A stretch of DNA of 64,000 nucleotides from the NCBI GenBank assembly GCA_964344235.1, contig CAYFMJ010000003.1:16054-80053 (forward strand), written 5' to 3'. A program made the position numbers and the translations under genes. Of the stretch, positions 41,882 to 60,037 are shown piece by piece. The notes beneath the pieces are model-generated. The model was not told the origin of the DNA. It saw nothing but the letters and a program-made list of their open reading frames with translations, and did not search any database. The first letter of the stretch is position 1, and each line of letters begins with the position of its first letter. This stretch comes from an uncultured Methanosarcinales archaeon (GTDB lineage Archaea > Nanobdellota > Nanobdellia > Woesearchaeales > GW2011-AR9).

Positions 41882-42322
41882 ATGTGTTTTGCCTATGGAA
41901 TTGGAGATACGGTCTTCCGGGGTAGACCAATCGTGGGAGGGGGCACTGCAAACTTCGGAAATGGGAGAGCATTAACAGATATTGATTCTGGAGGAAGAGA
42001 AGCCTTTTTTGATGTTAGAACTTTACAAGATCATGGCGGTTCTGGTGGGGAAGCTGCTGTTGGGAATCTCGTTGTCGTAGCACTGCCATTAGTTGGTGAA
42101 AAAAGAGTTCCGCCACCATCTTTACGCACGCCTAGTACCCACTCTCTTACGATGGGAGTAGATCTTGCTCAGCTGGCAACCGGGAGGAGGACGGGGACTT
42201 CAAGCAGATTGGTCCCTGGAACATTTGATACAACAAGAAGAATTAGTATCATGGATGTAAGACTTCTCACAGTAAGCCCCGAGGAAATGATTCCCGAAGG
42301 CATTGAAATGTTGCTTAGTTAA
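41882..42322 (+). CDS. Hypothetical Gly-rich protein; its 3' end overlaps thrS convergently
   Basis: ORF only; higher local GC. Confidence 0.3.
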   Translation: MCFAYGIGDTVFRGRPIVGGGTANFGNGRALTDIDSGGREAFFDVRTLQDHGGSGGEAAVGNLVVVALPLVGEKRVPPPSLRTPSTHSLTMGVDLAQLATGRRTGTSSRLVPGTFDTTRRISIMDVRLLTVSPEEMIPEGIEMLLS

Positions 42323-44483
42323 TGGATCTCCCTTCAATTTCTTTTACTACATCAGCAATAAAATCTTTGGTGGGCATGTCGAACTTTGTTTCGCCGTTGC
42401 GTAATCGAACTGCAACGGTGTTGTTCTCTTGCTCTTTATCGCCAATCGTCACAATATAATTAACGTGTTCCATTTGGGCATCACGAACTTTCTTGCCCAT
42501 AGATTCAACACGATCGTCTAACTCAACTCGAATGCCAACCAATTTCATTTCAGTTACCAATTTCTCTGCTGCGTCTTTGTTTCTATCGGTAATCGTTAAC
42601 ACTTTAACTTGCACAGGAGATAACCACGTGGGGAATTTACCGGCAAAATGTTCGATCAAGACAGACATAAATCGTTCTAAAGATCCAGAAATAGCACGGT
42701 GAATCATCACGGGCCGTTCTTTCACGCCTTCTTTATTCATGTAATGTAATTCAAATCGCTCAGGCAGGTTGAAATCTAATTGAACTGTAGCAAGTTGCCA
42801 TTCTCTTCCTAAAGCATCTTTAAACATGAAGTCTAATTTAGGACCGTAAAATGCTGCTTCTCCCAGAATTTTTTTGAATGGTAAGTTGTTTTCTTGTGCA
42901 GCTTCTTCTAATGAAGATTCAGCGATGTTCCATACTTTTTCTTCACCGAGGTATTTTGACTTGTCCTCTCCTCGAACGGAAAGCGATACCCAGTAATCTT
43001 TATCCATACCAAGTGTTTTATAGAATTGTAAGATGATGTTCACGATCGTTTTTACTTCTTGTTTAATCTGATCTATTCGACAGAAGATATGGCCATCATC
43101 CTGTGTAATGGAACGTACACGAGATAATCCAGTCAATTGACCTGCTTTCTCATCTCTGTATACGGTTGTTGGTTCAAAGAATCGGATTGGAAGGTCACGG
43201 TAGCTGTAGTTAAAGTTGTCAAAAATTTGAATGTGGTGAGGACAGTTCATTGGTTTCATCACAAAATTTTCATGTGCTCCTTTCACGTGGAATAGTTCTT
43301 CACCGAATTTATCCCAATGGCCTGACTTTTTGTAGAGGGAATCTTTGGCAATATGGGGAATAGATACTTTTTGATAGCCTTTGTCTTGATGGAGAGACCA
43401 AAGGAAGTCCGTAATTGCATCTTTGATAATCATTCCTTTTGGTGCGATTAATGGTAAACCAGCTCCTACTAAGTCAGATACTAAGAAGAGGCCCTGCTCT
43501 TTTCCAATCTTTAAATGGGAACGATTTGCTGCAGCTTCTTGTTCTTTTTTGTATTCCTGTAATTTTTCTTGTGAGTCAAATGCAACCAAATTAATACGGG
43601 TTAATTGTGTATTTTTCTCATTATTTTTCCAATACGCGCTAGAGATGGAGAGTAATTTTATTGCATTGATTGGCGTTGTGGTGAAAGGTTTAGGGAATAA
43701 TGGGGTGACTGTTGTGTTTGCTGCAGTATAGAAAGTTGGTTCTTTCAAATCGTGAGCGATTTGTTGCTGTAATCCGGTTGGATTCCCTTCTGGTTGGAAT
43801 GTTGTGTCTTTCCGTAGTTCTTTAACTTTCTTTGTAATTCTATTAAGGTCGTCCTGTCGTAGTTTAACGTTAGAGACGTCAACATATGCTTGATCGTGAT
43901 AAAAGCCAACAGCGCCCATTTCAGCATTTTCATATAATTGTGTTACGGCGATTCCTGTTAGGTAGGCAGCGGTTAATTTTACTTTTTGATCATCTGTTAA
44001 TGCTTCTGTGTTAAATGTGAACGGCTCGTCTTTGTAATCTCTCTTGAGAGAGGTTGCTTGTTCTTCACCGCTAAATTCCCTACTTAATTCTGATAATGGA
44101 TGGCCTTTACATGCAATAGTGAAAGATTTATACCAGCCAAAAGGCGCTCGATAGACAGAGAATTTTTGCTGTAGTTCCTGTTGTGCGTCTTTGAGAAATT
44201 GTTCCGCTATTTTAGGAGATGCTAAGTCTGAACTCAGATGTGCGTACGGGTACAAAACAATATGTTGTGGATTAACTTGCTGCGCAATATTTTTGATTTC
44301 CTGCAAATAGCGTTTCATCACTGCTTCTATGTTCTTCTCATCTCGCTTTTCAACAGCGGTGAAGATAACTAAACATTCTTCTACTTTTTCCTGTTCTGTG
44401 GAGATATTTTCCTCAGCGCCTTTGAAGGCCTGCTTTTTCGCTTGAAATTCGATGAAATCTGCGTGGATTGCTAGGATTTTCAT
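42315..44483 (-). CDS. thrS: Threonine--tRNA ligase, archaeal type with the N-terminal archaea-specific editing domain
   Basis: N-terminal MKILAIHADFIEF...VIFTAVEKRDE, class II motif 3 HRAISGSLERF, and a C-terminal anticodon-binding domain. Confidence 0.85.
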   Translation of the reverse strand: MKILAIHADFIEFQAKKQAFKGAEENISTEQEKVEECLVIFTAVEKRDEKNIEAVMKRYLQEIKNIAQQVNPQHIVLYPYAHLSSDLASPKIAEQFLKDAQQELQQKFSVYRAPFGWYKSFTIACKGHPLSELSREFSGEEQATSLKRDYKDEPFTFNTEALTDDQKVKLTAAYLTGIAVTQLYENAEMGAVGFYHDQAYVDVSNVKLRQDDLNRITKKVKELRKDTTFQPEGNPTGLQQQIAHDLKEPTFYTAANTTVTPLFPKPFTTTPINAIKLLSISSAYWKNNEKNTQLTRINLVAFDSQEKLQEYKKEQEAAANRSHLKIGKEQGLFLVSDLVGAGLPLIAPKGMIIKDAITDFLWSLHQDKGYQKVSIPHIAKDSLYKKSGHWDKFGEELFHVKGAHENFVMKPMNCPHHIQIFDNFNYSYRDLPIRFFEPTTVYRDEKAGQLTGLSRVRSITQDDGHIFCRIDQIKQEVKTIVNIILQFYKTLGMDKDYWVSLSVRGEDKSKYLGEEKVWNIAESSLEEAAQENNLPFKKILGEAAFYGPKLDFMFKDALGREWQLATVQLDFNLPERFELHYMNKEGVKERPVMIHRAISGSLERFMSVLIEHFAGKFPTWLSPVQVKVLTITDRNKDAAEKLVTEMKLVGIRVELDDRVESMGKKVRDAQMEHVNYIVTIGDKEQENNTVAVRLRNGETKFDMPTKDFIADVVKEIEGRSIN

Positions 44484-44592
44484 ATTGTGGTGGGAGTAGA
44501 GAGGAGTTTAAAAAGATAGCGGGGGAAGAAGTGACTACTTTTTAGGGGTTAATTGGGAAAATTTTATAAAATAAGCCCATTTGTAATGTATT

Positions 44593-44856
44593 ATGGTTAA
44601 TAGTTCCGATATCCCTCGAAACGCAATACATGCCTCTGCTAGTCCGGGAGATGTGGTTGAAGTTCTCTTTCAAACACCTGATGGAATGGAGAGGTTTTAT
44701 TTCACAGAAGAAGGTTTAGTCAACCCTTTTGGAGCAGCATATCCTCACACTGGAACTCCAACCATTTCATTAGATGGAGTTGTTGTAGAAGGTGATGGCA
44801 GGGAATATCATTCCGGGGAGGAAGGATTTCACTTGCAGAGTATATCGCTTATATAA
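44593..44856 (+). CDS. Hypothetical protein ending 2 nt before the island's left repeat cluster
   Basis: ORF only. Composition resembles the fragmentary ORF at the island's right flank. Confidence 0.35.
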   Translation: MVNSSDIPRNAIHASASPGDVVEVLFQTPDGMERFYFTEEGLVNPFGAAYPHTGTPTISLDGVVVEGDGREYHSGEEGFHLQSISLI

Positions 44857-44977
44857 ATTTTTCGTTACTTATGAGTGAAAAAAGTCACGAATCCCCAAAA
44901 ATTCGTTTTTCATTACTTTAAGTGGTTACAGAGTGCCGAGATTTTCGTTACTTTTTTGCCAAAAAGAGGTGAAAAAG

Positions 44978-45298
44978 ATGACTGACACGACCAAATTGTA
45001 CCATGAATTGCTAGAAAAGAGCGTATATGCGGTTCTCAGGGGAAACCTGCAGCGAAATGGCCTTCTGATGGAAGAAACAGATCAGACTGTCAAAATTATA
45101 GGGAATTCTAGAATTTCTATTATCCCCAAAGCGGAGATAATTGTTATAGACCTAGATAAGGAAGGGGCAGATATTACGCCAGAACAACAGACAGAGCTGC
45201 AGAAGATCAAAGCCTATCTTGAAGAGAAAAATAGGGCTACCAGGGAGAAAATAAAGGGGGATAATGAACCCCAATTTTCACTTAATAACTCAAGTTAA
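44978..45298 (+). CDS. Hypothetical protein, first gene of the island
   Basis: ATG at 44978 follows GAGGTG. The track start (GTG at 44933) lies inside the boundary motif. Confidence 0.4.
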   Translation: MTDTTKLYHELLEKSVYAVLRGNLQRNGLLMEETDQTVKIIGNSRISIIPKAEIIVIDLDKEGADITPEQQTELQKIKAYLEEKNRATREKIKGDNEPQFSLNNSS

Positions 45299-45517
45299 TA
45301 CAATTTCAGGACTAAACGGTATGTAGTCGGATTTTGCGGTTACATATCAAAAAGAGGTGGTAAAGGAGGCTTCAACAATAGATTTGAGGCTAAAAAAAAG
45401 AGCATTTTGTGGAGCATTTTGCTCAACTTGTCTTGAAAATTAACAAAAATTCACAACACCATCAAGGCTCGCTGAGAAATATGAAGTTGAGTTATTAACA
45501 AAAAAGAGGTATCAAAT

Positions 45518-45820
45518 GTGGGTAAACCAAAGAAGTATGATGTAAGAAGTATCAATTTTGGCGAAGTAGGCCATCCAGCCAGGATATTAGTAGATAAATT
45601 CGTTAGTTTGCATGGAAAAACTGCACTTTCTCGCTTAATTAGACGTCTAGTGATGATCTATCTTATGGAAAAGCCAGAGTATAGAGATTGGAAGGCTCAG
45701 AAGCTCATCTATGAGAGAAAAGAGCTAGGAAAGAAAGTTGCTCAGATCTTGGAAAGAAGGAGAAAGGTGGACGAAGAATTGAGAGACCTTGGAGTGAATC
45801 CAGATGAACTGATTTACTGA
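45518..45820 (+). CDS. Small basic protein, possible DNA-binding
   Basis: GTG start after GAGGT; Lys/Arg-rich helical C-terminus. Confidence 0.35.
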   Translation: MGKPKKYDVRSINFGEVGHPARILVDKFVSLHGKTALSRLIRRLVMIYLMEKPEYRDWKAQKLIYERKELGKKVAQILERRRKVDEELRDLGVNPDELIY

Positions 45821-45982
45821 AAATGAAGGGGCTAAAACGATTCAAATGTGGGCACTGCTCAAGGAAATACACGGGCCTGAATAAATGGATCTTCAAGCAT
45901 TTGGAGAAAAAACATCCTGACAAACCACCAAGGGCGCGTGCAATTGACCTAAAATTTAGGTATCATCACGGAGGATAGAACA

Positions 45983-46390
45983 ATGAAGGAAGATGAAAAA
46001 ATAAAACAAGATTTCAACCAGAGAGTTCCAATCAATTTAGTTGACGAGCTTCTAATACTACCAGGAGACATGAAGTCTAAAGAGAATAAGATTCAAGCTA
46101 TAAAATTCAAAATAGCAGACCTTAAGAAAAAAGTTGAGAAGTGGGAGTTAAATGAACTAGAGAAAATTTATCTTCAGGTTGGCAGTGATGGAAAAAGAGT
46201 TTATTCTAATGAGAAGCTAAGGGAAGCAGAACTAGAGCGAAGAAAAGATGCTTCTCCTGAGATTAAGAAATTATACGCAGAATTGTATGAGAATGAAATC
46301 AAGCTAGAATCTGAATTAATCGAATTTCGATATATGGATCGCAGATATAGTGCACTTAGAAACATTGCTAACATATTTTGTACTAGATAA
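45983..46390 (+). CDS. Coiled-coil protein
   Basis: Heptad-rich K/E sequence. Confidence 0.35.
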   Translation: MKEDEKIKQDFNQRVPINLVDELLILPGDMKSKENKIQAIKFKIADLKKKVEKWELNELEKIYLQVGSDGKRVYSNEKLREAELERRKDASPEIKKLYAELYENEIKLESELIEFRYMDRRYSALRNIANIFCTR

Positions 46391-46392
46391 AA

Positions 46393-47748
46393 ATGGAAAA
46401 CGAATCAATCAAAAGCATGAGGATAGAGAAGTTGAGCATAAGTTCTATTACTCCGGCCAATTATAATCCTAGAAAGATAAGTCCAGATGAACTTAACAAG
46501 TTAAGGAATAGCATACAGAAGTTTGGTTATGTTGAACCTATAATCTACAATAAGAGAACAGGGAAAATAGTTGGGGGACATCAAAGATTCAAGATACTTA
46601 AAGAAATTCTTGCTCCTGAAGAGCTCGTAGATGTTGTTATTGTTGATTTGGATGAGAATGAAGAAAAAACCCTTAACGTTGCGCTGAATAGAATTGGTGG
46701 AGAGTGGGATGACAATAAGTTATCAGAATTACTAAAGAATATTCACGATAATGAAGAAGACCTGCTAGAATTTACTGGGTTTAATGATAAAGAAATTGAA
46801 CTCCTTTTGAATCAATTAGAATACGAAGACATATCCAAGGAAGAGAGATTTTTTTCCATCAATAGGGAAGACATCAAAGAATCAAAAATAAAGACAGGGG
46901 ACATAGTTGTTCTAAATGATAAGCACAAAATAATTTGCGGCGATTCTTCTGATTCTTCAATATTCAAAAAATTATTTGTTAATAGAAAATTTGATTTAAT
47001 GGTGACTAGTCCGCCATATAATGTAAACATTGCTTATGGTAAATATAAAGATAACAAGAAATGGAATGAATACATTGACTTGATAAAAAAGATTTTTGAT
47101 AATTCTAAACAATTCTTGAACGATTACAGATTTTTATGCATCAATATTGGTGATATGACGAAGAACAATTTATCTGCTCATTATAGCATAATATTGGAGA
47201 ATCTTGATTACAAATACTGTAAAACAATCTATTGGGTCAAACCTTCTGCCTCAGCAAGAGGAACAAATGTATTGAAAACTCCCTATCCGCGATGGTATAG
47301 GCCAAAGGTCAACACGGAAACAATCTTGGTTTATGAATTTGGAGAAAAAGAACCAGAGATAGCTAATGTGATGTTGACATACTCAAAAGGAGAACTAACT
47401 TCTAAAACTAAGCCGGACAAAGGAGAAGCACAGGTAATTAGCAAGAGGTTGCTGAAACAATTTTTGACTAATGTTTGGTACATGCAACCTGAGACTACGC
47501 TCAGCAGAGATCATCCCGCACCTTATCCTGTTCAGTTACCTCTTAATTGTCTTAAGTTTTTCAGTTTGGAGAACGAAAGGGTATTTGATCCTTTTACTGG
47601 AAGCGGAACTAGTTTGCTAGCAGCCGATCTTCTTGGACGGGAATTTTACGGTATAGAGTTAGATCCAAAATATGTTCAGTTGGTGATTGAGCGATATAAG
47701 AGGTATAAACCTGAATCAAAGATTGAGATAATAAAAAATGAAAATTGA
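46393..47748 (+). CDS. ParB-like nuclease domain fused to a beta-class N6-adenine/N4-cytosine DNA methyltransferase
   Basis: N-terminal ParB box (IVGGHQRF); MTase motif IV SPPY before motif I FDPFTGSGTS (beta-class order). Confidence 0.75.
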   Translation: MENESIKSMRIEKLSISSITPANYNPRKISPDELNKLRNSIQKFGYVEPIIYNKRTGKIVGGHQRFKILKEILAPEELVDVVIVDLDENEEKTLNVALNRIGGEWDDNKLSELLKNIHDNEEDLLEFTGFNDKEIELLLNQLEYEDISKEERFFSINREDIKESKIKTGDIVVLNDKHKIICGDSSDSSIFKKLFVNRKFDLMVTSPPYNVNIAYGKYKDNKKWNEYIDLIKKIFDNSKQFLNDYRFLCINIGDMTKNNLSAHYSIILENLDYKYCKTIYWVKPSASARGTNVLKTPYPRWYRPKVNTETILVYEFGEKEPEIANVMLTYSKGELTSKTKPDKGEAQVISKRLLKQFLTNVWYMQPETTLSRDHPAPYPVQLPLNCLKFFSLENERVFDPFTGSGTSLLAADLLGREFYGIELDPKYVQLVIERYKRYKPESKIEIIKNEN

Positions 47749-48481
47749 AGAAGGAGATTTAGTTTATTTGGATAAGCACAGGCTTTTATGTGGAAATAGT
47801 TTGAAGTATTCAGTATTAAAAAAGTTACTTGGTGACAAAAAAGTTTCTATGTTGTTTACGGATCCACCTTATAATATAAGTTATGTTCCGGAAGATAGAC
47901 CAATTGGGGGCCGGAGAAGGTCAAAAAATAAACTTGGCGGGATTATTGGTGATACTAACTTTGATTTTAATAAATTTTTCAAGATTCTTGAGATTGGTTT
48001 TATAAAAGGAGCCATCTACGTTTGTGGGAGCACAAAGAACTACTGCGATGTTTACAAATGGATGACTAATTTCTTTGACAGAGAACCGATTGTAATTGTT
48101 TGGAACAAGAATAACTACAGCATTGGAAGAAGAGATTATCATAGACAACACGAATTTCTATTTTACTCTTGGTTTAAAGAAAAGGTTTGGAATGGTGACA
48201 AGGAAAGAAATCAGTCTGATGTTTGGAATGTTAAAAGAGTTCCATCAACAAAATACATTCATCCTACTCAGAAACCAGTTATCTTAGTTAAGAAAGCTAT
48301 TTTGAACAGCAGCAACAAAGGGGAGATTGTTCTAGATTTATTTGGCGGTAGCGGAAGCACTTTGATAGCAGCTGAATCGTCTGGAAGGATATGTTATACT
48401 GTCGAATTGGATCCTCATTATTGCGAGAAGATGGTAGAGCGATGGGAAGCATTTACTGGAAAAAAAGCGGTTAAGGTCTGA
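47738..48481 (+). CDS. Beta-class N6-adenine/N4-cytosine DNA methyltransferase (second, tandem copy)
   Basis: Motif IV DPPY (LFTDPPYNI) then motif I DLFGGSGST. Its N-terminus parallels the MTase half of the preceding gene. Confidence 0.75.
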   Translation: MKIEEGDLVYLDKHRLLCGNSLKYSVLKKLLGDKKVSMLFTDPPYNISYVPEDRPIGGRRRSKNKLGGIIGDTNFDFNKFFKILEIGFIKGAIYVCGSTKNYCDVYKWMTNFFDREPIVIVWNKNNYSIGRRDYHRQHEFLFYSWFKEKVWNGDKERNQSDVWNVKRVPSTKYIHPTQKPVILVKKAILNSSNKGEIVLDLFGGSGSTLIAAESSGRICYTVELDPHYCEKMVERWEAFTGKKAVKV

Positions 48482-48483
48482 AA

Positions 48484-48816
48484 ATGATTGAATCTTATTT
48501 GAGAAAGCAAGAGAAGTGGGAGGAAACATCCACTGTTGAAGGGATGGATGCTTTAGAAGGAGAAACTATCACAAAAATTATTCCCTTAGATAAAGACAAG
48601 TATATGATTTTAATGAAAAGTGGGGCTAGTTGCGTTGTTCACACAGCTGGATCATTTACGATTTATACAAAAGAAAAGACAACTAAGATACTGCAAGAAG
48701 TAACTGCCAAAAGTAAGAATTTCAGCATAATTCATTCAAGGGCTAAACTAGCTTTAGATCAGTTGGCACAAGAAAACCAACAGAAGAACGAACAGAATAA
48801 AACGGGGGCTGAATAA
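48484..48816 (+). CDS. Hypothetical protein
   Basis: ORF with tight spacing. Confidence 0.4.
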   Translation: MIESYLRKQEKWEETSTVEGMDALEGETITKIIPLDKDKYMILMKSGASCVVHTAGSFTIYTKEKTTKILQEVTAKSKNFSIIHSRAKLALDQLAQENQQKNEQNKTGAE

Positions 48817-48819
48817 AAG

Positions 48820-51792
48820 ATGGGTGTTTTTAGAGGAGTTAAATATGAGCTTTCGGATGAGGACAGAGTACTTGGCGGAAAGAGTAGAAGCCCAGCAAAA
48901 ATAGCAGCTGCTAAAGTCAATGCTTTAAAGCATGGAAAATCATCTAAGGACCCCACAATAAAAGAAGCAATTACTCCTACATCTAAAGAGAAAGCACTAG
49001 GAATTACGACTTCTGATAAAATCAAGCAGCTTAAGAGATTAAACCCTTTATTTGCAAGTGAAAATAGATTCAATTATTTATATGGGGTTCAGGAGTTCTT
49101 AGGGGAATTACTAGTTTCTGCATTGAGAAAGAAAAAGGAAGGTAAGTCAACAGATTATGAATATAGGCAACTTACTAGATTGAGTTTAGAGTTGTTTGAT
49201 AGATTCTATGGCAAGCCAGATACTATTGTGAATGTACAGCAAAATTTGGAAGTTACGGAAAGTGTTTTACTTACTCCTACGGCTGCACCTGTAGCAGCAA
49301 AAGGATTAATCTACTTTGACAGCACAGCCAATAAGATCAAAGTTTCGGAAGATGGAGCTACGTTTGTAGATCTTGGTGGAGATGTTACAGAAGTAATTGC
49401 TGGTTCTGGATTGACGGGCGGAGGAACTGGTGGAAGTATTACTCTTGATATAGGTTCAAGTACTGGGATAATAGTTAATGCTAATGATATTGCCGTTGAT
49501 GTTGGTACAGGACCAAACCAAATTGTCCAGTTAGATGGGACTTCCAAACTTCCCGCAGTGGATGGAAGTCAATTAACAAACTTACCTTCAACGCCAGGGG
49601 AAACAACAACTGGCGTTAATAGAGAACTTAAGCAACAAATTGAGGTAGTAGAATTATTAGAGGTTAGTAGTTTAACATCTTTAGTTGGTGTTAGTGAAGA
49701 TATAATTGTTGAAACATTCTCTGACGCTGATGGATTTAACAATTTAGTTAATGTTAGTAATACGGATGCTACTCATGATTTGCCTAGCAAAAGATACAAA
49801 GCAGAATTTGTTGCTGGCGGTGGTGGTTTAATCATTGATGATTTTGACAGAGCCGATAGTGCTACCGTAGGAAACGGCTGGACTGAAGTTGAAACAACAG
49901 GAAGTACATGGTCAATAGTAAGTAACAGAGTTAAATGTGATTATGAAGGAAGCAGTGATCCAAATATTCATAAAAATATTGGAAATCAGCCAGCATTTGA
50001 TATCAAGGTTAAGTGGGAATCTACAAATGTTAATATAACAAGGCCCTCTTTAGCGGTAAATGGTGATGGAATCGCACCACAAAATGGTTTATCGATGAGG
50101 GCTACTTCTAGTAGTGGTTTTGGAATTACAAGAAATGGAAGTGTACTTGCTTCTACATCTTTCACTTTCTTAGACAACACTGAGTATTTCTATAGACTAC
50201 AGTGGAACGGCTCTACTTTGAAAGGAAAAGTATGGAAAGCAACAGATGCAGAACCTGGAAGTTTTCAACTAAGTACAAGCACCACTACGGTTACGGACAA
50301 TGAAGTTACTTTATCCTGTATAGCAAATGCAAGTGGTTCTGAGGATGTGTTCTTTGAAGATTTACAATTCGTAGGAGAAACAATAGAAACGATTGATGAT
50401 TTTAATAGAGCAAACTCTGCTACTGTCGGCAATGGATGGACAGAGGATGAAGGTTTTGGGACATGGCAAATTCTTTCAAATAAAGTAAGAGGAGAAAGGA
50501 CATCGGATGGGAAAGTGACTATGTTTAAAACACTGGGTAATAAAAGTAGTATGATTCTTAAATCAAAGGTTAATCGTACAACGACAGTCGCTACTCTCAA
50601 TTTCAGAATGGGATTTAATTCTACTTCCGGAGATGTTAATGCAAGTGGATTAACTCTCCTTGTTGAAGATAGTGGGTCTATTTTAAGTCTATTAAGAGAA
50701 GGTGTAAGTTTAGCTAGTACCACTTTCACAGTTGATGAGAGTACAGATTATTTTATGCAATTATCTTGGGACGGTTCAACGTTCAAAGGAAAAATCTGGA
50801 AAACTTCTGAAAGCGAGCCATCTGGTTACCAACTCTCCGCAAGTACTACAAATTCAACTGGAGATAAAATTGGATTCACTATCAGTGGTGGTGGACCTGC
50901 AACTGGAACAATTGATTGGGATGATGTGGAGATTCCTGCCAATACTGGACTTGCCGCAACCATAGATGACTTTAACAGGGCCAATTCAACAACAATTGGA
51001 AATGGATGGACAGAAGATGTGGGAAACTGGGAAATTTCTGGTAATGAACTAAAGGGGCCAGTTGATAACAGCAATCCGCGAATTACTAAAGACATAGGAA
51101 ATAGAGGGACATTTAACGTAAAAGCAAAGATTAGAAGAGAAGATACTAGTTTTAGATTTAGCATGGAGATCAACAATACAACTCCTAATTTATCTACTGG
51201 AATGAAAATTGCATATGATGATAGTACTTTTAGCATTGGTAGAGCCGCTACAGGACTTGCATCTACACCTCTTTCTTTTCCAGCAAACACAGACCATTTT
51301 ATGAGATTGCAGTTTGATGGAACTGATTTGAAAGGAACCCTCTGGGACGCTTCCGGAGCTGAACCAAGTCCTCAACTTTCTGCAACTACTACAAACACAT
51401 CTGGGACAGGTATCTTACTTCGTAATGATAAAGCTGGAGGAGGCATTGGTCTATCACAGTTTTGGGATGAAATAATCGATGAGAGTATTACTGGCACTGG
51501 ACCGGGGATAACAGAAAGAAAAGTAGAATTAGATTTACCAACTATAAGCGGAACAGTCACTGATACTCAACTTGCTTCCCGATTTAATTTGGAAACTGGA
51601 AATGAAATTAAGTATGAATTGGAAGATGCAAGTGCTAACAAAGATACCGACTTAGCATTTGATACCAAGAATACTCTCACAAATCTTGTATCAAACCCAA
51701 CAAAGTTAAGGATATTGTTAAAACGAGGAACAGGTGGTTCAGTTGACGAACCAAATGTTAAATCAATAGCAATGAGATTATTCAAATCATAA
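48820..51792 (+). CDS. Large tail-fibre-like repeat protein (990 aa)
   Basis: The segment GSGLTGGGTGGSITLDIG...IVQLDGTSKLPAVDGSQLTNLPS resembles the phage tail-fibre / chlorovirus glycoprotein repeat. It is followed by three ~200-aa tandem repeats (IDDF[DN]RA[DN]S.T[VI]GNGWTE... G[ST].[LF]KGK[VI]W...EP...LS.ST). Confidence 0.6.
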   Translation: MGVFRGVKYELSDEDRVLGGKSRSPAKIAAAKVNALKHGKSSKDPTIKEAITPTSKEKALGITTSDKIKQLKRLNPLFASENRFNYLYGVQEFLGELLVSALRKKKEGKSTDYEYRQLTRLSLELFDRFYGKPDTIVNVQQNLEVTESVLLTPTAAPVAAKGLIYFDSTANKIKVSEDGATFVDLGGDVTEVIAGSGLTGGGTGGSITLDIGSSTGIIVNANDIAVDVGTGPNQIVQLDGTSKLPAVDGSQLTNLPSTPGETTTGVNRELKQQIEVVELLEVSSLTSLVGVSEDIIVETFSDADGFNNLVNVSNTDATHDLPSKRYKAEFVAGGGGLIIDDFDRADSATVGNGWTEVETTGSTWSIVSNRVKCDYEGSSDPNIHKNIGNQPAFDIKVKWESTNVNITRPSLAVNGDGIAPQNGLSMRATSSSGFGITRNGSVLASTSFTFLDNTEYFYRLQWNGSTLKGKVWKATDAEPGSFQLSTSTTTVTDNEVTLSCIANASGSEDVFFEDLQFVGETIETIDDFNRANSATVGNGWTEDEGFGTWQILSNKVRGERTSDGKVTMFKTLGNKSSMILKSKVNRTTTVATLNFRMGFNSTSGDVNASGLTLLVEDSGSILSLLREGVSLASTTFTVDESTDYFMQLSWDGSTFKGKIWKTSESEPSGYQLSASTTNSTGDKIGFTISGGGPATGTIDWDDVEIPANTGLAATIDDFNRANSTTIGNGWTEDVGNWEISGNELKGPVDNSNPRITKDIGNRGTFNVKAKIRREDTSFRFSMEINNTTPNLSTGMKIAYDDSTFSIGRAATGLASTPLSFPANTDHFMRLQFDGTDLKGTLWDASGAEPSPQLSATTTNTSGTGILLRNDKAGGGIGLSQFWDEIIDESITGTGPGITERKVELDLPTISGTVTDTQLASRFNLETGNEIKYELEDASANKDTDLAFDTKNTLTNLVSNPTKLRILLKRGTGGSVDEPNVKSIAMRLFKS

Positions 51793-51807
51793 TGGAGGTA
51801 GATAATA

Positions 51808-52086
51808 ATGGCAGATAGATGGTTTAGAGTACCACAAATTGGAGCTGGAACGACAGCTGATCCATTTAGACCTGAAACAAATGGATTGAATCAATGGGCT
51901 AGTGCTGGACAATACGGAGACAACGACTTTCTCGTACGAGTTTATGGGACCACGGCAGAACTTGACGCTTTAGCACTAGTGACTGGAGTAACTGAAGTGA
52001 CAGCAACATTTGATACTGAATACAATACTCTATGGACTACAAGTTTAGGCAAACCCGACATTGAGGCAAAAGTTTTTGCTGCTTAA
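51808..52086 (+). CDS. Hypothetical protein
   Basis: ORF 16 nt after the big gene. Confidence 0.4.
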   Translation: MADRWFRVPQIGAGTTADPFRPETNGLNQWASAGQYGDNDFLVRVYGTTAELDALALVTGVTEVTATFDTEYNTLWTTSLGKPDIEAKVFAA

Positions 52087-52191
52087 GAATGGATCTGTTC
52101 AAATGGTTACAAGAAATAAAGCGGAACACATACTTTCATTTGAAAGAACTAATCGAGAAACTCCACAAAAAATACTTCCAAGAAGTATGGA

Positions 52192-52491
52192 TTGAAGTTG
52201 GACACAATGGTAACAGATACTGGAAAAATAAACGGTAATGTCATCAGAATGGCTGAATTTAAAGGAGAAGTTCTTGCTACTTTGAGGTATCTTAAGGAAC
52301 AGCAACGCGAACATAGAGATGAAGTAAAAACAGGATTTAAAGAACAAAGCGAGGATATTAAGAAAATTTCACGAAACTTGGAAAAGCATCTTAAAAAGTC
52401 AGCTATTCAGAAATGGGTAACTGGTTCAATAGTAGTATGGTTAAGTGCCCTTACTGGTGTTCTTGTTAAAATATTTGTACTTGGAGGTTGA
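52192..52491 (+). CDS. Small protein with a C-terminal TM helix (holin-like topology)
   Basis: Charged N-terminus and a hydrophobic C-terminus. An alternative 50-aa ORF at 52089-52238 overlaps. Confidence 0.3.
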   Translation: MKLDTMVTDTGKINGNVIRMAEFKGEVLATLRYLKEQQREHRDEVKTGFKEQSEDIKKISRNLEKHLKKSAIQKWVTGSIVVWLSALTGVLVKIFVLGG

Positions 52492-52493
52492 AA

Positions 52494-52661
52494 ATGAAAA
52501 AAGACTGGTGGAAATCACGGATGATTTGGATTAATGTTCTAGTTACAGTTAGTGGTATTGCAACTGCTCTTGCAGATCATTTGACAGCAGGAGGAGCATT
52601 GACGGGAATAGGAGTTGTTAATATTGTATTAAGAGTCCTTACAAAACAACCAGTGAAGTAA
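52494..52661 (+). CDS. Small 2-TM membrane protein (55 aa)
   Basis: Manual translation MKKDWWKSRMIWINVLVTVSGIATALADHLTAGGALTGIGVVNIVLRVLTKQPVK. Confidence 0.3.
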   Translation: MKKDWWKSRMIWINVLVTVSGIATALADHLTAGGALTGIGVVNIVLRVLTKQPVK

Positions 52662-52768
52662 TTATTTTTATAAATCTCTTTTCACACAGAAGCCTATACC
52701 ACCTCTTTTTCCCTATTTGGAGTCGAATCCCTACTCCATCAATCTGGCGAGGGAAAGTAGCGCCAGAT

Positions 52769-53224
52769 TTAGGGTTTTTTTAATCGTTCTCCCACATCCT
52801 TCCTTAACGTAGAAACATACAATTTCAATTGCACTTCAACTTCTCGCCATTCTTTATCTGTGATTGACTTTCCTTCATAATGTGTTCTGTTTCTCATAAA
52901 ACGGACTTTCTCAAAGAAATTCCAATCTAATTCTAGTTCAGGAAACTTAACACAGATATATGCAAAACATCCCTGATGGTTACTACATTTGACTTTTTGC
53001 AGGCGAAGCAGAATGTCACACAATTCCCTTAGTGAATCATAATAAAGAAGAAAAATTACACGCCAGTTAATGACTTTCTTAGTAATAAGGGTTTCTGCAA
53101 ACTGTACATTATCAGCAGCAATATCGTACATTCTTTGAAGAGCAAGTTCATCTATATCTTTTTCTCTATACTCTCCTGCTACTGTTACTTTATCATAAAT
53201 TTCTTCAGCTGTCTTTTCAGGCAT
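52769..53224 (-). CDS. HEPN-domain protein (HepT-like toxin)
   Basis: RNRTHYEG is an Rx4-6H-type motif near the C-terminus of a ~150-aa helical protein. Overlaps the MNT gene by 8 nt. Confidence 0.55.
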   Translation of the reverse strand: MPEKTAEEIYDKVTVAGEYREKDIDELALQRMYDIAADNVQFAETLITKKVINWRVIFLLYYDSLRELCDILLRLQKVKCSNHQGCFAYICVKFPELELDWNFFEKVRFMRNRTHYEGKSITDKEWREVEVQLKLYVSTLRKDVGERLKKP

Positions 53225-53759
53225 GAATGCTCACCGTAAATGGTTCTATTTTTCCTTTAACATGTATTCCTGCAAGGATATTAGGTATAACATTCTCAAT
53301 CCTTTTTAATTTTTGCGGGTCTTCGTATTCAAAAAGTTGAATTTCCCTCTTAAAAATGCGTTCAAACTTTCCTTGTTCAAATTCATCAGCATTACCATAG
53401 ATAAATAGATCAATATCACTCTCATAATCCCAATCAGCTCTAGCAAAACTGCCAAAAATAATGACTGTTTTGGCCTTGGGTAAGGAACTGAGGTGTTCTA
53501 AAAATCCTGTCTTTTCAAATTGCTGGAAAGCATAGAGCCTTTTCTCCATCTTGAATTTTACATTTGTGTAGTTAGCAATATAATATGGCATTTTGCCTTT
53601 AGGTCTAAATTTTTTTATGAGCTCTTCCTTAGTTAATTTTTTAAGCCATTTATTGGTGCTAGTTCTACTTAATCCAGACTTCTTTACAAGGTCGTCAAAG
53701 TGCCAGTGCTTCGTTGAATAATTGAAGAATAGCTCTTTAATATTCTCTTTTTGTCTCAT
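53217..53759 (-). CDS. Minimal nucleotidyltransferase (MntA-like) with an N-terminal HTH
   Basis: GSFARADWDYESDIDLFI = GS.AR.....SDIDL signature. Confidence 0.65.
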   Translation of the reverse strand: MRQKENIKELFFNYSTKHWHFDDLVKKSGLSRTSTNKWLKKLTKEELIKKFRPKGKMPYYIANYTNVKFKMEKRLYAFQQFEKTGFLEHLSSLPKAKTVIIFGSFARADWDYESDIDLFIYGNADEFEQGKFERIFKREIQLFEYEDPQKLKRIENVIPNILAGIHVKGKIEPFTVSIHA

Positions 53760-53873
53760 ATTTTAGTACATATATGTGTACTACTTTATAAAGTTTTTGT
53801 TCCTAAATCGCTGTAGTTGTACCTCAGAATAAGTAACAAGCTTTTTAAATGAGCTAAATTATAACAAAATAAA

Positions 53874-55937
53874 ATGAAGTTTACAAGGAATTTATCGGAA
53901 TTGGACAAGGATGATGTCTCATTAGCGGGAGGAAAAGGGGCATCATTAGGAGAAATGATTAAAGCAGGTATCCCTGTGCCAGGCGGATTTGTTGTTCTCT
54001 CTACGGCATTTGAGGATTTTATCGAAAAAACAGATTTAAACGTAGAAATTGACTCTATTTTACATTCTGTTGATCTTAAGAAAATGCATACCATTGAAGA
54101 GGCATCAGAAAAAATTAATGCTCTTATTCTTAATGCAAAGATTCCAAATGAGATAGTGAGAGAAATAAAAGAATTATTCAAAAAAATGGGAGCCTCATTT
54201 GTTGCAGTTCGTTCTAGTGCTACTGCTGAAGACAGCTCAACAGCTGCATGGGCTGGTCAATTAGAGACCTATCTTAATACTACTGAAGAAAATCTTATTG
54301 AGAATATTAAAAAGTGTTGGGCTTCACTGTTTACACCAAGAGCAATATTCTATCGCTTCGAAAAAGACCTGCATAAGCAAAGAATTTCTGTTGCTGTTGT
54401 TGTGCAGAAAATGATTCAAAGTGATGTTTCGGGAATAGCATTCTCGGTTCACCCCGTTACTGAAGACAGGAATCAACTTATTATAGAAGCAGGATATGGC
54501 TTAGGTGAAGCAATTGTTTCTGGTTCTATAACTCCTGATAGTTATGTAGCCGAAAAAGAACCACTGAAGATTCTTGATAAAAACGTGTATGCTCAAGAAA
54601 AATCACTTGTCAAATCAGAAGAAGGTGGTACAGAATGGAAAGAAGTTGCTCAGGCAGATGTTGAAAAGCAAAAATTAACAGATAATCAGGTACTTGAGCT
54701 TACAAAAATCATAATCAACATTGAGGATCATTATGGATTTCCTGTTGATGTTGAATGGGCTTTAGAAAATGGAAAATTCTACCTAACGCAATCTAGACCA
54801 ATTACCACACTTTCAGCGGATACAGGATCTAAGGAAAAATTTTCAGGAGTTCCCGATATTGCAAACGATGATCTTCAGTATCTTCTTGAGCGAAATGAAC
54901 TTTACTTTGTATCTTCTATTTTAGCAGGCGGGTTTTGTGGTGAAGAAAATGTAAAGAAAATATTTGACATTTCTCCTCCAGCGGGAATAGTTCAACGCAA
55001 TGATGACTTTTTCTTAATTAAATCAACATTGATACCATTTACAAAAAAACTGAAAGAGAAAATAAAACAAGAGGGTTATGTAAGAAGAATTATTGAAGAA
55101 TGTCATCAAGCTGGAGCGCAATTACAGGCAGAACTCAAAGAGATTGGAGAGAGGGCTGCAAAAGTAAGAACAAAAGAAGAGATAGCAAGGTTATTAGAAG
55201 AATTTTTTGAAAAAGCAAAAACCTATTGTTCTTTTTATCCAATTGCCCTTTTTGAGAAACCAATGACTGAATTTGCAGAAAAAATTGCTAAGAAATACAC
55301 TAAGGATGACAATGAGATGCAAGAGATTTTTAACTTAATAACAACTCCAAGTCATACTACAGAAGCTGATAAAGAAAGAGATGATTTTCTAAAGTTATGT
55401 GCTCTTGCAGACAAAGGTGAAGATATAAGTCACTTGGCAGAAGAACATGCAAGAAAATATGGTTGGATAGCAATTAGATATCTCAGAGGAAATTTATGGA
55501 AGAAAGAAGATATCCTAAAAAGAGTTGCAGAAGCTGACCTTACCCTTGCAGAACAAGAACTCAAATCAAGGAAAAAACATAGAAAAGGAGTAGAAGAAAA
55601 GTTGCAAGAATTCATTAAAAAAGTGTCAAATGAAGATAAAGAAAGAATTCAACAAATAAGAGAAATTGTGTACTTACGAACACAACGGGCTGAGTATTTA
55701 GACATGTCAACACAGTATATAATTGGATTTCTACATAGGGTTAATGACGAGTTGGGTTTAGACTATGAGGACATGCTTCAATGTAATCTGCGTGAAATTG
55801 TCGATATGCTAACCACTGGTATTAATTTAAAAGAAGAAATTGCAGCTAGGCATAAGGAGCTGCTTGTTTTTCATAATGCTGGAGGGGTTTGTCTTTCTGG
55901 AGAAGATGCTGAGGAGTATATGGAGCTTCTGGATTAA
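53874..55937 (+). CDS. PEP synthase / pyruvate-phosphate dikinase N-terminal (ATP-grasp, PPDK_N) domain protein with a long all-helical C-terminal region; no phospho-His or PEP-utilising domains recognised
   Basis: The N-terminal ~310 aa match PPDK_N blocks (LAGGKGASLGEM, VAVRSSATAEDS, FPVDVEWAL). The C-terminal ~370 aa are K/E-rich helices. Confidence 0.6.
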   Translation: MKFTRNLSELDKDDVSLAGGKGASLGEMIKAGIPVPGGFVVLSTAFEDFIEKTDLNVEIDSILHSVDLKKMHTIEEASEKINALILNAKIPNEIVREIKELFKKMGASFVAVRSSATAEDSSTAAWAGQLETYLNTTEENLIENIKKCWASLFTPRAIFYRFEKDLHKQRISVAVVVQKMIQSDVSGIAFSVHPVTEDRNQLIIEAGYGLGEAIVSGSITPDSYVAEKEPLKILDKNVYAQEKSLVKSEEGGTEWKEVAQADVEKQKLTDNQVLELTKIIINIEDHYGFPVDVEWALENGKFYLTQSRPITTLSADTGSKEKFSGVPDIANDDLQYLLERNELYFVSSILAGGFCGEENVKKIFDISPPAGIVQRNDDFFLIKSTLIPFTKKLKEKIKQEGYVRRIIEECHQAGAQLQAELKEIGERAAKVRTKEEIARLLEEFFEKAKTYCSFYPIALFEKPMTEFAEKIAKKYTKDDNEMQEIFNLITTPSHTTEADKERDDFLKLCALADKGEDISHLAEEHARKYGWIAIRYLRGNLWKKEDILKRVAEADLTLAEQELKSRKKHRKGVEEKLQEFIKKVSNEDKERIQQIREIVYLRTQRAEYLDMSTQYIIGFLHRVNDELGLDYEDMLQCNLREIVDMLTTGINLKEEIAARHKELLVFHNAGGVCLSGEDAEEYMELLD

Positions 55938-56130
55938 GACATTTCACTAACCTTTTCTTTCTTAGTTCTCCAAGTGTTACAGATACTTTTACTAATTGTA
56001 TCTTAAGAGATTTACTGATTTCTGTAGGCGTTATGGGCTCTTCGTATTCATCCAAAATATTCAGCACTTTCTTCCTGCGATAACCTCTTCGTAGCCACGC
56101 CACCAAACGGTAATCAATAGATAAGTCCAT
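55846..56130 (-). CDS. Winged-helix DNA-binding protein
   Basis: The PITPTEISKSLKIQLVKVSVTLGELRKKRLVK helix-turn-helix pattern. Its 3' end converges on and overlaps the preceding gene by ~90 nt. Confidence 0.35.
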   Translation of the reverse strand: MDLSIDYRLVAWLRRGYRRKKVLNILDEYEEPITPTEISKSLKIQLVKVSVTLGELRKKRLVKCLNPEAPYTPQHLLQKDKPLQHYEKQAAPYA

Positions 56131-56212
56131 AGAAAGAACAGGTATCCTATCGGATAAAAGACAGGTTTACCGTTAGATATAACTATTTAACAAGGGCAAC
56201 TTATTTAAAGAA

Positions 56213-56473
56213 ATGAGAAAACAAAAACTAACGAGGTGGTTATTTATGGAAGAAAATAAATTTATGAATAAAGAGGATCTAAGCAAGCTAGCTAAAGAAG
56301 TTGTGAAAATTTTGAAGAATGACGAAGAGTATGCTCAATTTGTTGGTAGCGAAGTTCAAGATTATCTTGAAAAAACTAAAATACGAGAACATATTAATGA
56401 AATTGATGAACTAAAAAAAGAATTTAAACAATTATTATCTGAAGTAAAAGGCAAAGCTAGACAAGAACCATGA
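56213..56473 (+). CDS. Hypothetical small protein
   Basis: ORF only. Confidence 0.3.
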   Translation: MRKQKLTRWLFMEENKFMNKEDLSKLAKEVVKILKNDEEYAQFVGSEVQDYLEKTKIREHINEIDELKKEFKQLLSEVKGKARQEP

Positions 56474-56998
56474 TTTTTACTTCTTTCTTTTCATATACTG
56501 ATTAATGAATCTTTCTAGTACTGTCCAGACTTTTTCTCTTCTTTTCTTGACTTCATGAGTAAAATCAATCCATTTATCTCTATTCCCTCGGAAGGACAAT
56601 GAATCATCCTCGGACGAACCCTTTTTTTTTGCCATGTGGTACAATGCTATTGTCTTACTATATAAATATTTACATTAATTTAGGGCAATCTTTATATATC
56701 TCCTATGTCCCACAGTGACAAAGTGCTACAAATAAAAAAGTACGTAAATGGAAGAAATTTAGGCTTATTTATCCCAAAAAAGAGAAATATAGTATTATTC
56801 TCTCAGAAAGGGATAAGGATAAGTGAAAATTGTACCATGTTAGTGGTGAAAAAGGCAACACAATATCAACCATGCCGTAATCCTAGTTTAAAGGGGGCGG
56901 TATGTGATAGCAAGAGCCCCAACATCTGTTTTTACTTGTTGGGTAGTTAAGAGTTGGAGCTGTGCCTGCTGTCTCCAAAAAAAATGGAGGTGGTAGGT

Positions 56999-57850
56999 AT
57001 GCTACCAAATAGAATAAGGTATGTGAAAATGGGTAAATCAACCCTAGCGAAAAAAATAACGGAAGAGGAATTGCAGACATTCTTTGACGCAATTCCAAGA
57101 GTGACAAAAAGGAGCACGTATTGGCTCACATTGTTTATGACTCTAAGCGATGCTGGGCTTAGAGCAGGTGAGGCAGTGAGATTGAAAATAAATGATATCC
57201 ATCAGGAGAAGAATATCATTACAGTACACCAGCAAAAGAATGGCGTAGATCATGAAGATACGCCTTTTACTCAAAGGTTGAGAGAACAACTCAACAAATT
57301 TATTGCCTTATATCATAAACAAATCAAAGAGAGTGGGGACTATATGTTCTTCACTCAATATACAGTTAGGGGTCAAGATGTTATAGGCGAGGGTGAGCAC
57401 ATTAAGACTTCTAATTTACGAAAGATGTTCAATAAAGTAAGGGCTGAAGCAGCCACTGTCATGCCAAGCATAGGAAGAGCTTATACAAAGAGGACAACAA
57501 AAGACGTTACCAATGGTAATGCTCCATGTAAGGCACTTGGCAGGCCTCTGATGGTAATTACGCCCCACACTTTAAGACATCGCTTTATACAGCGAATAGC
57601 GGACCAGGAGGGACTCTTTAAGGCCCAACAGTGCGCTAGACACCTACATTTTTCTTCTACCTTAGTCTATGCAAAAAAGAGCATGAAAGCAAAAGTTGAA
57701 GCAATAAACAACACGTTTGATTCCGAGAAGAAGGACCAAGCAGAAGAGATTAATGAATTAAAAGAACAGGTTGCAAGCCTTACAAAAATGCTTCAGGATA
57801 ATATGAATATTCTGAAGTTCATTAAGGGGGTGAATGGAGGAAATGAATAA
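56999..57850 (+). CDS. int: Tyrosine recombinase / phage-type integrase
   Basis: Catalytic residues in GLRAGEAV (R), HTLRHRFI (H..R) and LVYAKKS (Y). ATG at 56999 after GGAGGTGG; the track start at 56954 is TTG. Confidence 0.75.
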   Translation: MLPNRIRYVKMGKSTLAKKITEEELQTFFDAIPRVTKRSTYWLTLFMTLSDAGLRAGEAVRLKINDIHQEKNIITVHQQKNGVDHEDTPFTQRLREQLNKFIALYHKQIKESGDYMFFTQYTVRGQDVIGEGEHIKTSNLRKMFNKVRAEAATVMPSIGRAYTKRTTKDVTNGNAPCKALGRPLMVITPHTLRHRFIQRIADQEGLFKAQQCARHLHFSSTLVYAKKSMKAKVEAINNTFDSEKKDQAEEINELKEQVASLTKMLQDNMNILKFIKGVNGGNE

Positions 57851-58118
57851 GCAAGAAACCAAATATCTCTTAGAAGTTTACAAAGATTGTCTAAAACTTG
57901 AAAGGCAGAACCAATTAACAGAGCATGGTGCTGGAATGGGCGAATTAGCTTCTATTCTTCTCAAGAAGCACAGAGAATTCAAGCATCTGAAAGAAAGGGA
58001 GAAATTGAAATGCCTATCTTGTAAGAAGGCTTATTGGGTATCTAATGAAGAGAGATGCGTTTTTTGCGATTCAAAAAAGGTAGTGAAGGCAAATGCCCCT
58101 CTACCAGTTAAACACTAA
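57834..58118 (+). CDS. Small zinc-ribbon protein (CLSCKK...CVFCDSKK)
   Basis: C-x2-C...C-x2-C motif. Confidence 0.4.
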   Translation: MEEMNKQETKYLLEVYKDCLKLERQNQLTEHGAGMGELASILLKKHREFKHLKEREKLKCLSCKKAYWVSNEERCVFCDSKKVVKANAPLPVKH

Positions 58119-58134
58119 CTTGGAGGTAATACCA

Positions 58135-58440
58135 ATGAAAGAAAACAAAAAACTAGCCGTAGGCATAAAAAAGGACTTTACTAAGAAGAAATCCGGAAGA
58201 AAAAGAGTATCACACAGGGAAGTGTGTTATAGAATTCTAAAGGAGAGAGGTAAGCCAATGCATTACAAAAAAATAACGGAAGAAGTTCTAAAGGAATGTA
58301 AGTCAGTAGGTAAGACTCCGCAAAATACAATGTATGCTAGAATGTTAACAGACAAGAAAAGATTCAAACTTCTTGGCAAGGGAAAGTTTGCTCTCTTAGA
58401 ATGGGAAAACAAAGCGAAGGTGATTAAGAATGCCAAATGA
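58135..58440 (+). CDS. Winged-helix (Mrr_N/HARE-HTH-like) small DNA-binding protein
   Basis: VSHREVCYRILKERGKPMHYKKITEEVLK pattern; ATG at 58135 after GGAGGT. Confidence 0.35.
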   Translation: MKENKKLAVGIKKDFTKKKSGRKRVSHREVCYRILKERGKPMHYKKITEEVLKECKSVGKTPQNTMYARMLTDKKRFKLLGKGKFALLEWENKAKVIKNAK

Positions 58441-58786
58441 AATTGGAATTGTATCTAAAGTCAAACCACGGGACAAAACTTACAGTGTTGCAGTAAACAA
58501 ACAATGGTTTGGTGGTTTCGGTAAGTGTCCTGTACTTGAAGGAGAAACAGTGAAAATTGAATGGAAGCAGAAAGGTGACTTTAAGAATATATTAAAAATA
58601 GAGAAAGTAGAACCTGTATTTCAAGATGAGCTACAACAAGCTCCTGAAATTGATTCTAGGATCAATGATATAAGGCTTCAGGTTTGTGTAAAAGCTGCAG
58701 CCGGAGTGTTTGCAGGAACAAAAATCAACCCATCAGAAATTGCTGAGTATTCAAGGAACTTGTTTAAGGAATTGTGGGGGAAGTAA
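58430..58786 (+). CDS. Hypothetical protein
   Basis: ORF overlapping its neighbours by a few nt. Confidence 0.35.
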   Translation: MPNEIGIVSKVKPRDKTYSVAVNKQWFGGFGKCPVLEGETVKIEWKQKGDFKNILKIEKVEPVFQDELQQAPEIDSRINDIRLQVCVKAAAGVFAGTKINPSEIAEYSRNLFKELWGK

Positions 58787-58787
58787 T

Positions 58788-58970: not shown

Positions 58971-58976
58971 ATTATC

Positions 58977-59997: not shown

Positions 59998-60037
59998 TGA
60001 GCATACATTTTTAAATCTTGAGAATCTCTTTAGAATC

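Follow-up and report, generated by a model that had tools for sequence, protein, structure and literature searches.

A probable virus-derived pair of orphan DNA methyltransferases, one fused to a ParB-fold domain, in a Woesearchaeota-like archaeon

The 64,000-nt stretch of archaeal DNA analyzed here (contig CAYFMJ010000003.1, positions 16,054 to 80,053; hereafter the window) encodes two overlapping DNA methyltransferase (MTase) genes, M1 and M2. We consider that M1 and M2 are probably a virus-derived orphan MTase pair of the class found at phage ParB-terminase loci, with no restriction enzyme. A first-pass annotation of the same DNA had described the two genes as tandem MTases, the first with a ParB-like nuclease domain, and both open reading frames (ORFs) were recovered at 46393–47748 (+, 451 aa) and 47738–48481 (+, 247 aa). 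The features of the pair are as follows.

46393–47748, + strand: M1, 451 aa, a ParB_N domain fused to a beta-class MTase; the start is possibly Met9 at 46417
46423–46665, + strand: ParB_N (ParB/Srx-fold) domain of M1, residues 11–91, Pfam PF02195
46993–47685, + strand: N6_N4 MTase domain of M1, residues 201–431, Pfam PF01555
47738–48481, + strand: M2, 247 aa, a stand-alone beta-class MTase without ParB
47738–47748, + strand: 11-nt overlap between the end of M1, stop codon included, and the beginning of M2, ATGAAAATTGA

Architecture of M1 and M2

From its N-terminus, M1 comprises a domain of the ParB/Srx fold, a helical linker, and an amino-MTase of the beta class that bears an SPPY motif. The ParB-type domain named at its N-terminus in the first-pass annotation is recognized by PF02195 (30.1 bits against a cut-off of 26.3). 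Its NPR motif lies at 46465–46473 and GGHQR at 46573–46587 (residues 61–65), and the G-x-x-R phosphate/active-site loop of the ParB/Srx type is present. Residues N25, P26, R27, G62, and H63 are invariant in an alignment of 37 homologs, and R65 (in G62-H63-x-R65) and E91/N95/N99 are also conserved. The MTase domain matches PF01555 with 134.3 bits (cut-off 26.7, E 8e-39), with motif IV SPPY at residues 206–209 (47008–47019) N-terminal to motif I FDPFTGSGTS at residues 398–407 (47584–47613). In the AlphaFold2 model of M1, the mean predicted local distance difference test (pLDDT) score is 77.6; the ParB domain (residues 10–130) reaches about 90, and the MTase core is likewise folded with confidence. 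The true start of M1 may be Met9 (46417), since this is the first residue of a public annotation (P0001, 443 aa) and of the alignment with the homologs.

M2 matches PF01555 with 85.7 bits (cut-off 26.7, E 6e-24) and has the same beta-class order, with motif IV DPPY at residues 42–45 (47861–47872) ahead of motif I LDLFGGSGST at residues 199–208 (48332–48361). The best PHROG match of M1 is phrog_498 ("DNA methyltransferase"), which it spans over its full length (E 8e-92). M2 covers only the MTase half of this profile (positions 191–430, E 3.5e-65), indicating that it is not a ParB fusion, and the PADLOC MTase_II model PDLC03229 gives the same picture for both proteins. The Pfam and motif matches of M1 and M2 are far beyond chance. 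The reading of both genes as MTases with motif IV preceding motif I is thus borne out by PF01555 and by the motif positions, and M1 and M2 are beta-class MTases in which both the catalytic and the S-adenosylmethionine (SAM) motifs are intact. The overlap, put at 10 nt in the first-pass annotation, is 11 nt when the stop codon is counted, and comparable overlaps occur in four relatives (L001, L002, L170, and L172). Its presence suggests translational coupling of M1 and M2.

Relatives of the pair at viral terminase loci

The ParB and N6_N4 MTase fusion is a phage- and prophage-enriched architecture (PMC12704722). More than 2,291 clusters of the family were found at E ≤ 1e-3 (scored candidates). 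Relatives occur in 557 GenBank phage records for M1 and in 956 for M2, and ParB-MTase prophage loci number in the hundreds in Bacillota and other bacteria. These phage records, together with the phrog_498 match and the published survey, agree with the earlier statement that such fusions are typical of phages. A contig scan with a single protein gave no match. Among the matches listed by a contig scan with alignment, only bacterial prophage ParB-MTases were present, at about 30–35% identity (40% for one short fragment), and the matches listed by a scan of IMG/VR were likewise bacterial prophage-type ParB-MTases only. The close relatives of M1, which share its SPPY motif, were reached through a protein search and contig look-ups. 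Eight independent relatives on viral contigs were sampled (L001, L002, L003, L169, L170, L172, L175, and L176), and they are 45–47% identical to M1.

M1 has the same architecture as the PHROG 498 phage ParB-MTase fusions from end to end. M1 retains their NPR and G-H-x-R motifs, their T-G-F linker motif, and their GD..KH..CGDS leader, and the setting in a virus or mobile element without a restriction enzyme is also common to both. On the other hand, M1 shares only 28–36% identity with the members from bacterial phages and prophages, has SPPY where DPPY is usual, carries an extra insertion of about 50 residues in the MTase core, and comes from an archaeal host.

All eight sampled relatives contain an ortholog of M2 (47–62% identity), and in all eight the M1 and M2 orthologs lie upstream of large terminase and portal genes. 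The two orthologs directly adjoin each other in L002, L170, and L172; a third MTase of the DPPY type sits between them in L001 and L175, and at least one small ORF does so in L003, L169, and L176. The slot after M2 is occupied in the relatives by a gene of terminase-small-subunit size, followed by the large terminase, which is directly downstream of the pair in most of them, with a few small ORFs intervening in L169 and L176. This is the arrangement of Tls (ParB-terminase large subunit) loci, for which the concept has been put forward that phage DNA receives its modification from the MTases while it is being packaged (PMC4738411). The window cassette is accompanied by no terminase, portal, or capsid gene, and a 110-aa ORF and a 990-aa fiber-like protein come next. 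Since no large terminase, portal, or capsid gene is present in the window although all eight relatives have the Tls arrangement, the window cassette appears to be derived from Tls-type loci and not to be one itself.

The viral relatives show several further features. The L001 contig (SRR35358855, 1–12676) carries four DNA MTase genes, namely one C5 MTase, the ParB-MTase, and two more N6_N4 MTases, along with two radical SAM enzymes, several glycosyltransferases, and an ORF resembling ribosomal protein S27e, an archaeal/eukaryal-type protein. Hint/intein domains are found in the gene at the large-terminase position in L172 (11524–13656) and L176 (10509–12716); for the latter gene, the recorded Pfam domains include no terminase. 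Hint/intein domains also occur in a 721-aa ParB-MTase cluster with 52 member sequences (P0064).

Bacterial loci offer a partial parallel to the pair. An SPPY ParB-MTase that precedes a second MTase, of DPPY or DPPW type, occurs in about 13 of the roughly 160 loci from bacteria or IMG/VR. The prophage tandem pairs of Tepidanaerobacter (L088), Thermoanaerobacter (L090), and a Burkholderiales metagenome-assembled genome (L092) resemble M1/M2 in having the SPPY enzyme first and the DPPY-type enzyme second, and in their proximity to terminase, as seen for L088 and L092, where two ParB-MTases precede the large terminase. They differ in that both genes carry a ParB domain of their own (by Pfam in L088 and L092), while M2 has none. 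The neighbor-joining tree described below does not group the SPPY clade of bacteria with that of M1, so the SPPY-first, DPPY-second pairs of bacteria and M1/M2 may have arisen independently. In the Tepidanaerobacter prophage locus (L088, 8001–15398), amidoligase and gamma-glutamyl cyclotransferase-like (GGACT) genes lie between the two tandem ParB-MTases and the large terminase, which points to a more elaborate pathway of DNA modification in a locus of this type.

Origin of the two-gene unit

The first-pass annotation took the similarity between the two N-termini as a sign of tandem duplication. The parallel it quoted, GDIVVLNDKHKIICGDS / GDLVYLDKHRLLCGNS, is real and corresponds to a BLASTP segment with 46% identity over 48 aa (E 2e-11). 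A leader of the form GD(I/L)V..KH..(I/L)CG(D/N)S ahead of motif IV is common to both enzymes, and both match phrog_498. These likenesses would fit a recent local duplication in which the second copy shed its ParB domain in this lineage. However, M1 and M2 are only about 29% identical, and BLASTP aligns just two partial segments. M2 lies nearer to bacterial ParB-MTase domains (36% full-length; 130–180 bits, against 60–100 for M1): it matches a Clostridium ParB-MTase, in the MTase domain of the latter (36% identity over the full length, E 2e-44), better than it matches M1, and the resident MTase domains of about 160 bacterial and viral loci score about 110–180 bits with M2 and about 60–100 with the MTase domain of M1.

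A neighbor-joining tree of 52 MTase domains (240 columns), in which deep branches are unreliable, also contradicts a local duplication. The seven M1-type domains (the window and six relatives) form one clade with a bootstrap value of 93, all with SPPY, and the seven M2-type domains form their own clade with a bootstrap value of 95, all with DPPY. The M2 clade is placed among the ordinary DPPY ParB-MTase domains. Since the clades are separate and M2 orthologs are present in all eight relatives, M1 and M2 form an old two-gene unit that was inherited together, and any duplication predates the divergence of these viruses. The two genes thus appear to be tandem duplicates in a remote sense only, the claim of a local or recent event is not sustained, and a recent local duplication with shedding of the ParB domain in this lineage is very improbable.

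Predicted chemistry

SPPY is common to most bacterial N4-cytosine MTases, and DPPY is typical of N6-adenine MTases (PMC8885841). The solved structures closest to M1 are TTHA0409 (2ZIE, with SPPY) and rotifer N4CMT (8S9M-O), followed by beta-class enzymes that form N6-methyladenine (m6A) and by M.PvuII. TTHA0409 and the rotifer N4-cytosine MTase are the best matches of M1 both by sequence and by structure. The best sequence matches of M2 in the PDB are m6A enzymes, namely those of the M1.HpyAVI/DpnA type, M.BceJIV, and M.RsrI. Because of the SPPY and DPPY motifs and of these closest matches, M1 is likely to form N4-methylcytosine (m4C) and M2 m6A, although SPPY is a correlate of N4-cytosine methylation and not proof of it. 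The suggestion in the first-pass annotation that the two paralogs have two target specificities is likely in view of SPPY in M1 and DPPY in M2. M1 and M2 share the fold and the order of motifs IV and I with the solved beta-class amino-MTases (TTHA0409, N4CMT, and M.PvuII for m4C; M.RsrI, M.MboIIA, CcrM, M1.HpyAVI, and M.BceJIV for m6A). Sequence identity to them is only 16–24%, and the top structural matches (255–290 aligned columns) leave the N-terminal ParB domain of M1 uncovered. Since the target recognition regions are unrelated to those of the solved MTases, sequence specificity is not transferable from them.

Role of the ParB domain

M1 resembles the ParB proteins of ParABS partition systems in its N-terminal ParB/Srx (CTPase-type) fold and its G-x-x-R phosphate-binding motif. 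Unlike these proteins, M1 contains no helix-turn-helix (HTH) or C-terminal dimerization domain, ParB_N being the only non-catalytic domain found by Pfam, and its ParB domain is fused to an enzyme. No ParA gene was found among the neighboring ORFs scanned. Because Pfam gave neither an HTH nor a dimerization domain and the scanned neighbors include no ParA, M1 is most likely not a partition protein.

The "nuclease" of the first-pass annotation is an old Pfam domain label and not a demonstrated property of M1. The ParB fold is at present classed as NTP-binding, of the ParB-CTPase kind, and many ParB-fold fusions bind NTP (PMC12704722); nicking has been reported for BCE_0392 of B. cereus alone among its relatives (PMC5512222). 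As stated, the nuclease assignment does not hold. A phage ParB-like protein activates a DNA-modifying thymine dioxygenase only on double-stranded DNA (PMC13229309). On our analysis, the most economical reading is that the ParB domain most likely serves the MTase as an accessory or loader.

Genomic setting

M1 and M2 belong to a same-strand operon within an island, which has the following features.

45518–52086, + strand: eight-gene operon including M1 and M2, with intergenic gaps of -11 to +15 nt
44484–60037, no strand: island, an insertion of about 15.5 kb by synteny with L174, between the threonyl-tRNA synthetase (ThrRS) gene and the PIG-L/GT4/TRASH genes
56954–57850, + strand: tyrosine recombinase (phage integrase family) in the island, Pfam PF00589, E 3e-16

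The operon encodes, in order, a 100-aa protein, a 51-aa C2H2 zinc finger, a 135-aa protein, M1, M2, a 110-aa protein, a 990-aa fiber-like repeat protein, and a 92-aa protein. These neighbors show no similarity to the neighbors of M1 and M2 in the related viruses; since the genes around the cassette differ, the element in the window is not a simple copy of those viruses. The zinc-finger ORF (45823–45978), two genes upstream of M1, has the pattern C..C...H....H and a weak Pfam match. The 990-aa protein (48820–51792) contains three repeats of about 190 aa, each opening with DDF(D/N)RA(D/N)S.T(V/I)GNGWTE, and the corresponding DNA repeats begin at 49830, 50388, and 50958 (spacing 558 and 570 nt). 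Only a short fiber stalk motif of this protein matches tail-fiber or adhesin-like proteins (3–17% coverage).

The limits of the island were set by comparison with a related 638-kb Woesearchaeota-like contig (L174), whose ThrRS is 65% identical to that of the window. In L174, only about 500 bp lead from ThrRS to the PIG-L, GT4, and TRASH-like genes, whose counterparts in the window lie at 60038–60697, 60694–61836, and 61912–62157. The DEAD/DSHCT helicase and adenylate kinase genes on the other side of ThrRS are also syntenic with L174. Since L174 has the flanking genes joined by about 500 bp, the segment 44484–60037 is an insertion; its GC content is 36.4%, against 38.4% for the remaining window. 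No gene for terminase, portal, or capsid was found in the window by tblastn with five large terminase, three portal, and three capsid proteins from the relatives. No attachment-site (att) direct repeat of at least 11 nt linking the island ends was found, and the window contains no tRNA and no Rfam family at gathering score. The cassette was moved, or left behind, as a unit within an integrated element.

The host, judging from its protein sequences, is a DPANN (Woesearchaeota-like) archaeon. The ThrRS (42315–44483, - strand) has an archaea-specific editing domain, its named relatives (about 47–65% identity) all come from Candidatus Woesearchaeota or Nanoarchaeota or from an unclassified "archaeon", and an Nre protein is also encoded.

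Several other observations concern the island. The 10-mer AGTAACGAAA has five exact copies in the 64-kb window, four of which lie in two clusters near the island ends in inverted orientation, at 44860–44869 (-), 44943–44952 (-), 59322–59331 (+), and 59344–59353 (+), with a one-mismatch copy at 44908 (-). Allowing one mismatch brings the number of matches to 14, where 6.2 would be expected. The clusters may be candidate terminal or regulatory binding sites. Just inside the right island end, at 59243–59269 (+), a sub-threshold match to the Rfam DUF805b RNA was obtained (27.6 bits against a gathering score of 35.6; E 1.6e-5 in a 901-nt search). At 52769–53759 (-), a nucleotidyltransferase (NTase; NTP_transf_2/Polbeta, PADLOC PDC-M05A) overlaps a 151-aa partner ORF. 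A related genome (P0247 contig) carries two NTase pairs directly beside ThrRS, one of them with a HEPN partner, and the ThrRS neighborhood may be a hotspot for NTase pairs. The island also encodes a 687-aa protein (53874–55937), whose only domain is PPDK_N (phosphoenolpyruvate/pyruvate-binding, ATP-grasp) and which has a long helical C-terminus, and its small ORFs include a HARE-HTH protein.

Discussion

The pair is best explained as a virus-derived orphan modification cassette, for which we propose the following mechanism. M1 and M2 would be co-produced via translational coupling, and both enzymes would methylate the DNA of their own element; in complete viruses, the target would be the replicated genome around packaging time. 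Two bases would be targeted, N4-cytosine by M1 with SPPY and N6-adenine by M2 with DPPY, and DNA methylated in this way would withstand the restriction systems of the host when it next enters a cell. The ParB domain would act as a DNA-loading or NTP-gated accessory that aids work on double-stranded DNA, and would be neither a partition protein nor a restriction nuclease. If expressed in the archaeon, the cassette would also methylate the host chromosome. A more elaborate proposal, which we regard as rather improbable, is that M1 and M2 form an obligate, translationally coupled heteromer in which one ParB domain loads both subunits on double-stranded DNA and m4C and m6A are written together, the DPANN archaeon having retained this writer from a decayed virus as an epigenetic or self-marking system.

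Several points weigh against the proposed mechanism. With no terminase, portal, or capsid gene here, the logic of methylating before packaging is not directly applicable to the window. The prediction of base and sequence specificity comes from a single motif, and an amino-MTase may accept both adenine-N6 and cytosine-N4. In a PNAS 2025 survey, N6N4-MTase fusions were candidates but not among the NTP binders named (PMC12704722). The B. cereus ParB-methylase BCE_0392 was reported to nick DNA non-specifically, the only relative of which this is so (PMC5512222).

This last report would be expected if the ParB domain were an active DNase or nickase directed at unmethylated host or rival DNA, with the MTases protecting their own DNA in a restriction-like manner and no classical enzyme being needed. 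Other ParB/Srx domains, those of Osa and GmrS, are DNases or NTPases (PMC5512222), and the NPR and G-H-x-R motifs are conserved in M1. However, because the nicking was reported to lack sequence specificity, methylation could not protect against it. The ParB fold is mainly a switch that binds NTP (PMC12704722), the phage ParB is an activator of a DNA-modifying enzyme and not a nuclease (PMC13229309), and ParB is absent from the M2 orthologs. We therefore judge a nuclease weapon to be quite improbable. A classical Type II restriction–modification (R-M) system could still be built around the pair if one of the small ORFs adjoining the MTases were an unannotated restriction enzyme. The ORFs at 45983–46390 (135 aa) and 48484–48816 (110 aa) match no family in Pfam, PHROGs, or PADLOC, and restriction enzymes are hard to recognize by sequence. 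But at 135 and 110 aa they are short for this role, typical Type II restriction enzymes being longer. Neither ORF is conserved beside M1 and M2 in the relatives, where the gene of terminase-small-subunit size and, after it, the large terminase take the slot behind M2. Pfam, PHROGs, and PADLOC detected no nuclease or restriction-enzyme family in the island ORFs scanned, and the search of the flanks proposed in the first-pass annotation, run with Pfam and PADLOC, agrees with its statement that no cognate restriction enzyme is present. The Pfam annotations on record for the eight viral relatives, and two bacterial prophage loci, contain no restriction enzyme either, so the adjacent endonuclease in related elements that could have overturned this statement was not seen. 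The only nuclease-type genes of the relatives are a small HNH beside the terminase in L172 and L176, as is usual where phages package their DNA, and, in L176, one Vsr-like gene that lies 6 kb upstream. A classical R-M system is thus hardly credible here.

It is also conceivable that the cassette has been domesticated, the archaeon having kept M1 and M2 as orphan MTases acting on its own chromosome after decay of the provirus. They might then serve in epigenetic regulation, in protection from elements that carry R-M systems, or in camouflaging DNA that is exchanged with a host cell. Although terminase, portal, and capsid genes are missing from the island, M1 and M2 are intact with every clade-invariant residue, and the same locus, including the adjoining ThrRS fragment, was assembled in several samples of one project. 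On the other hand, the locus is a lower-GC insertion absent from the related genome, its operon includes the zinc-finger and fiber-like proteins with an integrase nearby, each of the closest relatives has a viral packaging context, and no evidence of long-term vertical retention was obtained. We consider domestication unlikely, and probable virus derivation of an orphan MTase pair remains our preferred explanation.

The kind of cassette is well populated and already described, and M1/M2 is no new kind of system. What is modestly new is that the host is a DPANN archaeon, that an SPPY ParB-MTase and a ParB-less DPPY enzyme are conserved as partners, and that this pair is separated from the packaging module. 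An archaeal (DPANN) example thereby joins a modification cassette known mainly from bacterial phages. The SPPY ParB-MTase and its DPPY partner, traveling as a conserved two-gene unit, provide a testable lead on the role of ParB in DNA-modifying enzymes, and methylome studies on DPANN archaea and the viruses that infect them have in M1 and M2 a pair of candidate enzymes, for m4C and m6A.

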